Positions 24,253-26,116 of a DNA stretch of 64,000 nucleotides are shown here, piece after piece. Positions within the stretch are counted from its first letter, which is position 1, and each line of letters starts with the position of its first letter. Position numbers and translations under genes: made by a program. The notes below the pieces were generated by a model that had not been told where the DNA came from, made no database searches, and saw only the letters and a program-made list of their open reading frames with translations. The DNA is from a virus. The stretch is from the IMG/VR virus record IMGVR_UViG_3300036864_000108, positions 5,755-69,754 of that record; one strand, 5' to 3'.

Positions 24253-24422
24253 GTTGTCAGCCGAAGTCGCATATTGGGGCTGTGCGTCACGTCGGGGCCG
24301 TGAACGCAGCCGGCGTGCGGGGGCCGGTCGTCGAACTGGACGGGTTGGCCTTCGTCGATCACCCGGTCGATGTTCTCATCGGGGGTGTCGGGCTCGTCAA
24401 ACTCGTCGGTCGGCCCGGTCAT
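24246..24422 (-). CDS. Small acidic protein in lysis cassette
   Basis: Manual translation MTGPTDEFDEPDTPDENIDRVIDEG...; coupled both sides. Confidence 0.45.
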   Translation of the reverse strand: MTGPTDEFDEPDTPDENIDRVIDEGQPVQFDDRPPHAGCVHGPDVTHSPNMRLRLTTW

Positions 24423-24916
24423 GCGACGCCTCGTCTCGCCGCCTCGTCGTTTGTCGCCACCGAGATGCGGGCAACGTCAGCGTCGGACAGCCCAGCCAGC
24501 CCCTTGTCGAGGAGAGCCTGCGCCAACGCGGCCTCGTCCACGTCCCCGGCCGGCTGGGCGGCGAGCGCGTCCAGTTTCGCGCCGAGGCCAGTCAGGTCCG
24601 GCGCGCCCGCCTTGACGATCGCAGCTGCGGACGTCTTCAGTGCGTCGAGCTCGGCCTGGGTGATCTGGGTGGTGGTGTCGTGCGCGATGTGCGCCTTCCG
24701 TAGCGCGTTCAGGACGGCCATGCTGGACAGGCCGTACACCAGTCCGGGGCCGACGAGGTACTGGTTGGCGTTGCCGGTGACTTGCACGCAGGCCAACCTG
24801 GGGCCGTGGGTTGCTGCCACGATTTCCCTCCTGATCGCCGCGACGAGGGTGGTGAGCATCCACTGCTGGTCGGCCGTGTTGAGGGTCATGGGCGTGATTG
24901 CTTCGGGTGCCGTCAA
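24419..24916 (-). CDS. Non-catalytic endolysin C-terminal-like / scaffold subunit
   Basis: N-terminal TLNTADQQWML helix; helical C-terminus DVDEAALAQAL....LSDADVARI..A..DE.ARR resembling actinophage lysin tails. Confidence 0.6.
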   Translation of the reverse strand: MTAPEAITPMTLNTADQQWMLTTLVAAIRREIVAATHGPRLACVQVTGNANQYLVGPGLVYGLSSMAVLNALRKAHIAHDTTTQITQAELDALKTSAAAIVKAGAPDLTGLGAKLDALAAQPAGDVDEAALAQALLDKGLAGLSDADVARISVATNDEAARRGVA

Positions 24917-24929
24917 CGTGTGCCTCCTG

Positions 24930-25448
24930 TCAGGTGACTGCGGTGGGGGCGAACGTGCCGGTCAGCCACGCCTTGTCGGCGCCGGTCAGCGACCGGGGCG
25001 GCGGGGTGAACGGGAACCGTGCCCACGAGGGGCGGGGATGGTAGTCGCGGCCCATGCGGGCGAGCCCGTCGTAACCGGCGTCGTAGAACTGCACCTGTTC
25101 CTGCGCCGCACCGGCGAGACCGGGTTCGTCGCGGACGATCACATGGATGTGGGGGTCGAACCCGCCGTGCGCAGCGTCGCGGTACCAGGCGGGGCCGCCG
25201 CAGCGGCGACGCAGCTCCACAACGAGCGGTTCGATTTTGGCGGCGGGGAGGTTCCAGGTGCGCAGGTCCGCGGCCCCGCCACCGGAGTGTGTGCCGGCGC
25301 TCGCCGAACCGGAAGCCCAGGAGCCTTGGACGACGACGATGACGGCCGGGTCGATTCCGGCTGCGGCGGCTGCGGCGTCGATGATCGCGTTCACCCGGCG
25401 GGTGACGGTCCCCAGGTTGCGGGTGACCCGCTCACCGGCCCAGGTCAT
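24930..25448 (-). CDS. Endolysin catalytic subunit, M15-like zinc peptidase
   Basis: QGSW....SAGTHSGGGAADL...AWYR.....FDPHIH; Q...YDAGYDGL. Confidence 0.8.
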   Translation of the reverse strand: MTWAGERVTRNLGTVTRRVNAIIDAAAAAAGIDPAVIVVVQGSWASGSASAGTHSGGGAADLRTWNLPAAKIEPLVVELRRRCGGPAWYRDAAHGGFDPHIHVIVRDEPGLAGAAQEQVQFYDAGYDGLARMGRDYHPRPSWARFPFTPPPRSLTGADKAWLTGTFAPTAVT

Positions 25449-26116
25449 AGGCGTACCGCTTGGGCGAATGTGCCGGCGAGCCATGCTTTGTCGGCGTCGG
25501 CGAGCACCCTGAGGGGCGGGGGGACAGTCTGCCCAGGTTTCCATCCGCCATAGTCGGCGGTGGTGGCCCGGTCGTGGTCGATCATCCCACCGCACACGCT
25601 GACGTTGTTCTTGTACTGCTGAAGTTGCGCCTTGGGTGACCATTTGCCGCCAGACCAGGCGTACGTTTGCCACCCCCACGCCGCCCACTTGGGGCACAGC
25701 CGTTCGATCGCCGCGTACGCCCCGTACACGCCGACGTTTGCGCGACCCAAGATCGAGGCGGCGCCGTCGCAGAACGCATGCACCGCGAACCACTCGGCGG
25801 ACATGAGCCCGGCCGGGTCCGTGTCCAGGGCGAAGTAGATGGGCCGACCATCCGGCATCCCGCATGCGGTGGCCGCAGCTTTCGCGCTGACCGCGGCGGC
25901 GACACCACGCGGATGCCCGCCGAGCATGAACGACGTGCCTTCCTGGTACACGGCCACGATGGACAGGCCGGCGGCGGCGAGCCGTTTCGCCTCGGCGGCA
26001 TCCAGGTTTTTCGCGGAGCCGCGGGACGAGATGTACCTCACCACGAACCGCATGCCCCGCGCGTGTAGACACGTCGGGTCGGGTCGGTCAAACGAGTAGT
26101 CGCAACCCTCGACCAT
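25445..26116 (-). CDS. Endolysin catalytic subunit, DUF1906 / GH25-like glycoside hydrolase
   Basis: G.DYS..RP, FVVRY, KNL..AE, IVAVYQ, PIYFA.D.D, GVYG, WQTYAWSGG, Q.QQY, D.DRA..DYGGW. Confidence 0.9.
   Translation of the reverse strand: MVEGCDYSFDRPDPTCLHARGMRFVVRYISSRGSAKNLDAAEAKRLAAAGLSIVAVYQEGTSFMLGGHPRGVAAAVSAKAAATACGMPDGRPIYFALDTDPAGLMSAEWFAVHAFCDGAASILGRANVGVYGAYAAIERLCPKWAAWGWQTYAWSGGKWSPKAQLQQYKNNVSVCGGMIDHDRATTADYGGWKPGQTVPPPLRVLADADKAWLAGTFAQAVRL

Follow-up and report, generated by a model that had tools for sequence, protein, structure and literature searches.

Why should two unrelated lytic enzymes of one phage end in the same short helix with which their non-catalytic neighbour begins? 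The question is posed by three adjacent minus-strand genes in a stretch of 64,000 nucleotides (nt) of viral DNA, hereafter the window (positions 5,755 to 69,754 of IMG/VR record IMGVR_UViG_3300036864_000108, which is 69.8 kb long with a GC content of ~66%): gene A (25445..26116), encoding a glycosidase of 223 amino acids (aa), gene B (24930..25448), encoding a predicted zinc peptidase of 172 aa, and gene C (24419..24916), encoding a non-catalytic protein of 165 aa. The original prediction for this locus, which quoted the three proteins exactly as they read, was that interchangeable catalytic heads assemble through the shared helix on a separately encoded scaffold, giving a plug-in endolysin. 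Our own answer is that A, B and C form one multi-subunit endolysin held together by matching helices, and we give this about an even chance. The holoenzyme part of the prediction is favoured by comparative evidence, that is by fused relatives, by the recurrence of the triple pattern in a distant phage, by the matching of helices within genomes and by a model of C that resembles PlyCB, the binding subunit of the endolysin PlyC; physical assembly, stoichiometry and wall binding by C are what we infer from it.

A (...PPPLRVLADADKAWLAGTFAQAVRL) and B (...TPPPRSLTGADKAWLTGTFAPTAVT) each end in the same helix of about 20 aa, preceded in both by a PPP linker (residues 199-223 of A, 25448..25522, with DKAW at 209-212; residues 148-172 of B, 24933..25007, with DKAW at 158-161; both on the minus strand), and C, which opens ...PMTLNTADQQWMLTTLVAAI, starts with it (head helix at residues 10-32, 24821..24889, minus strand, including D16 and W19). 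The claim that near-identical tails sit on different folds is borne out by a BLASTP comparison of A with B, in which the tails alone align (14/19 identical, E 4e-6). That C begins with the same pattern is likewise confirmed by local alignment scores, since in 2000 shuffles the A-C score was reached 4 times and the B-C score 10 times, the A-B score being reached by none. A regular expression for the motif hits these three sites only in a six-frame translation of the window (shuffles averaged 0.0, n=30), a result that measures the uniqueness of the motif and not its discovery, as this expression, like the one behind the counts of short tails given below, was written after the motif was known. 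At the DNA level the tails of A and B share 38 of 51 nt and differ at 13, with 5 of the 11 differing codons synonymous, and these differences indicate that the likeness is not a recent copy and has been kept at the protein level. The tail and head helices have hydrophobic moments of 0.14-0.27 and net charges of -3 to +1, low values by which a membrane-active tail is ruled out. A fusion of B and C by readthrough is also ruled out, as their frames differ.

Gene A encodes an Rv2525c/DUF1906-type glycoside hydrolase, which matches PF08924 (Rv2525c_GlyHyd-like, formerly DUF1906) over residues 16-181 (E 8.2e-29; 101.6 bits against a Pfam cut-off of 27.2) and the endolysin family phrog_13480 (5.3e-29) and has no further domain. 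This coverage, like that of B, fits the notion that neither enzyme has a wall-binding domain of its own. The A family comprises 478 homologues at E<=0.001, 120 of them listed, and among these listed matches other members carry PG_binding_1 (PF01471) in place of the tail, and at least five glycosidase homologues open long C-terminal modules with L(S/N/T)D(A/T)DKK(W/Y)L (e.g. LSDADKKWL, LNDADKKWL and FTDADKKYL). Lysins of Gordonia and Rhodococcus phages that align up to residue 214 of A were considered and rejected as short-tailed forms, being long multi-domain lysins.

B holds as a LAS (M15-like) peptidase by fold and motif, not by sequence family. LAS/M15-like peptidases are defined by the zinc-ligand pattern H-x6-D...H-x-H, and the corresponding residues H54, D61, H100 and H102 are invariant in a 22-sequence alignment of the B family. 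Furthermore, an AlphaFold2 model of B (predicted local distance difference test score, pLDDT, 90) is best matched by the Zn DD-peptidase 1lbu of Streptomyces (Z 6.4, root-mean-square deviation (rmsd) 3.0, 103 aligned residues), followed by VanXYg (Z 6.3), hedgehog N-domains (Z 5.5-5.9) and Ply500 (Z 4.4), and the first 40 structural rows all have the hedgehog/DD-peptidase fold; it is because of the invariant motif and this best match that we place the modelled B in the LAS fold. Foldseek alone returned no match to the model at E<=0.001, no peptidase family of Pfam, PHROG or NCBIfam matched B at E<=0.1, and the family profile found nothing among PDB sequences at E<=1, so that the description of B as M15-like stands at the level of fold and motif and falls at that of curated sequence families. 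Most of the 109 family members (E<=0.001, B included) have 200-250 aa, their extra length being a C-terminal extension behind the conserved core end DYHPRP; judged by eye these extensions comprise SH3-like, LysM-like and peptidoglycan-binding-like ends, and many of the modules start with a capped helix. In B itself the tail helix is modelled at residues 156-166 (pLDDT about 67-76). Among 50,697 phage records B has one weak match (EBPR siphovirus 6, 36% identity), as a single protein it found none among viral contigs, and the family alignment found one locus among genome contigs, in a Nanopelagicales metagenome-assembled genome.

The start codon of C is TTG, with AGGAGG 6 nt upstream, and databases start the protein at Met10, which gives 156 aa. 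No family at all in Pfam, PHROG or NCBIfam matched C and thus no catalytic one, in agreement with the earlier statement that it has no catalytic motif. An exhaustive search of 1.84 billion representatives gave 3 relatives only, two of which stand alone and start with the same helix; the third, P0237, is an amidase-like lysin of 317 aa (endolysin PHROG 1493 at 1.8e-6) which carries MPLDSADKKYL... and whose C-terminus is 58% identical to that of C. The three stand-alone C homologues all share ten head-helix residues (T11, L12, D16, W19, M20, L21, L24, A27, I28 and R29), and 37 positions are invariant over four homologues. Endings like that of C furthermore recur on many long glycosidase lysins. 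The 50,697 phage records held no protein match for C and no DNA match for C and its region, a word-index search with C returned C itself only, the C-family alignment found none among genome contigs, and the best ESM Atlas score (0.77) is under chance level.

The AlphaFold2 model of C, built from a 6-row alignment, is weak overall (pLDDT 57) and gives the head helix, at residues 14-32, a pLDDT below 50; residues 41-100 reach 66-78 and form a three-stranded sheet with two helices. When the body of C (residues 38-98, 24623..24805, minus strand), a small beta/alpha domain, was compared with 48,161 PDB chains by VIA-align, PlyCB ranked first (Z 6.0, rmsd 3.2, 59/61 residues), followed by 3l9a (Z 5.8) and the wall-binding domains (CBDs) of LysIME-EF1 (Z 5.4) and Lys170 (Z 4.8), with Z<=3.3 from rank 7, and three of the four best matches are binding parts of known multimeric endolysins. 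Foldseek gave the PlyCB chains a TMt of 0.59-0.63 and an rmsd of 2.5-2.9 at E about 0.5, and a search of the viral library BFVD had a top list of mostly phage lysins, none at E<=0.001. hhalign relates the C body to domains of ~55 aa at the C-termini of lysins of both the B and the A family (probability 42%, E 2.6e-4, 46 columns). Given middling Z values and a modest model, we take a PlyCB-like fold of the C body to be likely and not established. Behind the body follows a helical C-terminal region (residues 99-165, 24422..24622, minus strand, ..DVDEAALAQALLDKGLAGLSDADVARIS..).

Since relatives carry the same module and helix fused behind catalytic domains, C is, as judged by sequence comparison, a C-terminal lysin module encoded alone, of which the helix is the first element. 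The LAS peptidase P0010, for instance, runs on ...PEAIEMPLTSADKAW... (...PEAIEMPLTSADKAWISAEIAKQV...) into a module collinear with residues 4-94 of C (29% identity, E 0.003), and across the relatives lysins of the glycosidase, LAS peptidase and amidase-like kinds carry the helix-headed module in fused form. The motif, which the original prediction proposed to seek in other phage lysins, is thus present on fused lysins, and it is also found on all three proteins of a distant phage.

This phage, L002, is a viral contig of 105 kb and 44.6% GC on which the three genes of interest follow one another (L005, 100% identical, is this phage again and was counted once). Its A homologue is 60% and its C homologue 47% identical to the window proteins; the former ends ...LNEQDKTFLLGPFAQAVRF (...IRQLNEQDKTFLLGPFAQAVRF) at the stop codon and the latter starts ...LTETDKNWMLTVLVQAIRRE (...GTLTETDKNWMLTVLVQAIRRE). 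The second gene encodes a protein of 256 aa that ends, again directly at the stop codon, ...LTTADQIWLTTNFARSVNG (...TLTTADQIWLTTNFARSVNG) and has the tail alone in common with B (11/22 identical). No family match was obtained for this protein, and in the ESM Atlas it lies near Amidase_2 clusters (0.91), a lead only, on which we do not name the enzyme. Compared with the other copies the L002 tail DNA is identical at 20-25 of 51 nt, and the ending of the short tail is kept, reading FAQAVRL in the window and FAQAVRF in the L002 glycosidase, each before the stop codon. The L002 glycosidase also has an extra N-terminal domain of ~145 aa (3097-3540 of the contig; phrog_12298 at 3.5e-9 over residues 37-141) that A is without, and because of this domain the chain may hold two activities.

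A different helix type occurs in L004, a contig of 2962 nt from a close relative of the window, with identities of 77% for a papain-like peptidase, 84% for the glycosidase core, 88% for the C body, and 68% and 62% for two further proteins encoded downstream of C, one of 58 aa and a holin (partial). Here an amidase-like domain (phrog_1493, 1.9e-8) precedes the C body in one fused chain, the two being linked by the helix EEWIVATEADLRKVVAEEL, and the glycosidase has the tail GDWFDHASIADLHRVVGEEL, the protein ending GDWFDHASIADLHRVVGEELRAVLP at its stop codon. This tail and the fused helix are 55% identical over 20 aa, a score reached by 0 of 2000 shuffles, whereas cross-type pairs of window and L004 helices are at chance (reached by 611-2000 of 2000). 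Two helix types can be told apart, and all three genomes have an enzyme tail that agrees in type with the helix at the head of the C body. The border of helix and body is the exact breakpoint between window and L004, and since everything outside the swapped block is conserved, the recognition target of the helices should lie inside it. Indeed, as the conserved parts outside the block cannot tell the types apart, the sequences are most simply read as helices that recognise each other, and the presence of the helix on the scaffold itself suggests like-with-like packing. Inside the fused amidase-C gene of L004 (2112-2132) a GTG that is in frame and immediately in front of the helix has GGAGGAG 6 nt upstream of it; as a lead only, this could be an internal start yielding a free helix-body protein, as in endolysins of the Lys170 type.

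Of 80 DUF1906 loci collected, 32 without the anchor motif were dropped and 48 kept. Tails of <=45 aa occur in 6 of the 48, one of the six being the L002 phage, and the rule that tail and head helix match gained no further test from them, nor from four further loci gathered with P0118. A regular expression for the DWF type missed P0118 and P0131, which were both judged by eye, and searches of viral contigs with the L004 fusion protein and with P0235 found none. In three of the loci (L034 at 3583-5142, L044 at 3562-5127, and also L037) the DUF1906 glycosidases end in a short acidic linker and about six residues (..DDEMAVYTSY and ..DEDDEQTIHIS, each at the stop codon), and this ending resembles the way in which the C-terminal domain encoded by the immediately preceding amidase gene starts (..EEDDMPYFAVPP.. 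and ..EDEDEMPYLHVP..). Such endings could represent a strand-type analogue of the helix tails.

Taken as one endolysin, the window system would consist of two bare catalytic domains, A and B, each ending in a proline linker and a helix of ~15-20 residues, and of C, in which a helix of the same type would be followed by the small PlyCB-like domain and the helical C-terminal region, and which would take the role that the wall-binding domain has in single-chain lysins. The chain would so to speak have been cut through a helix of which each half retains a copy (enzyme-helix and helix-body). The helices are envisaged to pack in parallel, three of them in the window and L002 and two in L004, an arrangement in which the enzymes would lie on the N-terminal side of the bundle and the C body on the opposite side, reproducing the order enzyme-helix-body of the fused relatives, and C would carry both enzymes to the wall. 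Having a strong ribosome-binding site of its own, C may furthermore be made in excess and oligomerise in the manner of PlyCB and the LysIME-EF1 CBD.

Several observations weigh against such an assembly. The head of C resembles the tails modestly (39-40% over 15-18 aa), the tail helix of B is short and broken by proline, and short tails of the ADKAW type are rare, being found in 1 of 119 glycosidase and 0 of 108 peptidase homologues among the matches listed. The model of C is weak, and Z values of 4.8-6.0 are middling and can reflect a common arrangement. Tail, second enzyme and head helix are moreover contiguous in the genome, so that a single recombination event may account for how the window and L004 differ, which weakens the argument from covariation. 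Finally, the matching rule is seen in only three independent genomes, and these are the whole basis of the claim that the heads are interchangeable. A two-chain complex prediction for A (24-row alignment) and C (4-row alignment) gave scores of 0.01 and 0.02 against a mark of 0.32; it was run without controls, gives no verdict and is counted neither way.

The same observations might be explained by recombination alone, in which case the tails would be leftover pieces of linker and first helix from the shuffling of domains at a junction that is conserved, A and B would each work unaided as single-domain lysins, and C would be a fragment that is independent or in decay. Lysin C-termini are indeed extremely mosaic in both families, the breakpoint falls at the helix/body border, a single event would be enough to exchange the contiguous block, and single-domain split lysA genes exist in Gordonia phages, for which the account cited does not, in the sections concerned, propose assembly (PMC9671378). 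Relics of this kind would however not be expected to keep their length and ending when the tail DNA is near random (20-25/51 nt) between genomes ~20 GC points apart, and they leave unexplained why the same helix type stands at both ends of the block in three genomes. The occurrence of the motif on non-homologous enzymes in two phages and the 37 invariant positions of C also speak against a relic, and we regard this explanation as unlikely.

It is conceivable too that the helices do not bind each other and that each separately binds a common ligand, be it a wall polymer, the membrane, the holin or the 58-aa protein, which would account for the motif in that all three proteins act at the same envelope and shared targeting peptides would share a motif. 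This is in poor agreement with L004, in which the 58-aa protein, the holin and the C body are conserved and the helix type is not, as well as with the character of the helices, which is not membrane-active by moment and charge; furthermore, a motif placed at the C-terminus of the enzymes but at the N-terminus of C is a better fit to a broken enzyme-helix-body chain than to a positional signal, and a common ligand thus seems improbable. Chaperones do feature in phage lysis, Gp1 of mycobacteriophage Ms6 reportedly acting on LysA, and C could in principle be a regulator or chaperone which binds the tails to keep A and B inactive or to aid their release, and not a targeting subunit. It sits between the lysins and the holin, a frequent place of lysis accessory genes, and the low confidence of its modelled head helix is as expected of a partner-dependent element. 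However, relatives have the same body fused behind catalytic domains, in the position of a wall-binding domain, and the modelled fold matches wall-binding subunits, and we accordingly think a regulatory role very improbable.

How a multi-subunit endolysin of this design would relate to known ones is best seen by comparison with PlyC of streptococcal phage C1 (PlyCA and eight PlyCB), whose catalytic and binding parts come from separate genes of one operon and which is, in the sections cited here, the sole endolysin described as built from separately encoded subunits (PMC7098653). The window resembles PlyC in that catalytic and putative binding subunits are encoded on separate adjacent genes and in that PlyCB is the best structural match of the modelled C body. 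It differs in having two catalytic chains with one activity each, where PlyC has one catalytic chain with two activities, in the short helix shared by all three chains, and in its host, a high-GC bacterium in place of a streptococcus, the relatives of the families being actinobacterial. No sequence similarity of the window proteins to PlyC was detected, and no literature treating PlyCB together with actinobacteriophages was found. LysIME-EF1, Lys170, CTP1L and CD27L are, according to the same sections, each the product of one gene, with extra free wall-binding domains joining the full-length lysin (PMC7098653). The CBDs of LysIME-EF1 and Lys170 rank third and fourth for the C model, but in the Lys170 type the free CBD arises from an in-frame internal start and assembly is from CBD to CBD, whereas C is a separate gene in another frame and the catalytic chains of the window have no CBD and offer the helix only.

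In Gordonia phages two adjacent lysA genes of <300 aa with one catalytic domain each have been reported, the role of the split being called unknown in the part of the account cited (PMC9671378). As far as that part goes, it proposes no assembly, shared tail or third subunit (PMC9671378). The division of labour is the same, A being glycosidase only and B peptidase only. A functional parallel is found in the cellulosome, where through dockerin and cohesin a short common module plugs different catalytic subunits onto a scaffold that binds the substrate and is not itself catalytic; in folds and size the two systems are however unrelated, and the window element is a single helix that is present on the scaffold too. 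The arrangement was not found in the listed literature on heteromeric or docking endolysins and on DUF1906/Rv2525c endolysins. It differs from known endolysins in that its two catalytic activities reside on separate chains, that a third gene without catalytic function accompanies them, and that all three products have one short helix in common.

If true, multi-subunit endolysins would be a wider design principle, extending to a three-gene form in which a transferable helix joins two different catalytic chains to a PlyCB-like subunit, an explanation would be at hand for the 'split lysin A' genes of actinophages, and the helix would provide a natural short tag for assembling engineered lysins. 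One may go further and imagine a 'helix code' in phages of high-GC Gram-positive hosts, in which at least two short interchangeable helix types (ADKAW-like and DWF..DL..VV.EEL-like) choose the enzymes that assemble on a PlyCB-like wall-binding oligomer, heads are exchanged by recombination without rebuilding the targeting part, and fused, two-gene and three-gene forms are interconvertible. This extension is possible, but we are inclined to doubt it.

The genomic setting of the three genes is that of a lysis operon-like cluster, five minus-strand genes running head to tail from 26116 down to 23956, with separate reading frames for A, B and C. ATGA overlaps join the stop of A to the start of B and the stop of C to that of the 58-aa protein, C does not share the frame of B and is preceded by a strong ribosome-binding site of its own, and a holin gene lies downstream. 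The 58-aa protein (24246..24422, minus strand) has no family match; it is strongly acidic and 68% identical to its counterpart at the same position in L004. The holin-like membrane protein (23956..24252, minus strand) has 98 aa and matches the holin family phrog_9284 at 1.5e-6. On the other side of A, an Lsr2-like gene on the plus strand (PF11774 at 5.6e-23, PF23359 at 5.4e-12) and an HNH endonuclease gene on the minus strand occupy 26175-27330 of the window, between gene A and the gene of the papain-like peptidase; since in L004 the peptidase gene directly precedes the glycosidase gene, this pair looks like an insertion. The papain-like cysteine peptidase itself (27401-28075, minus strand, 224 aa; phrog_16701 at 8.8e-60, PF00112 under the cut-off) is encoded just upstream of the lysis genes and has a counterpart of 77% identity in L004. 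It carries no helix tail and may act as an additional enzyme of lysis or processing.

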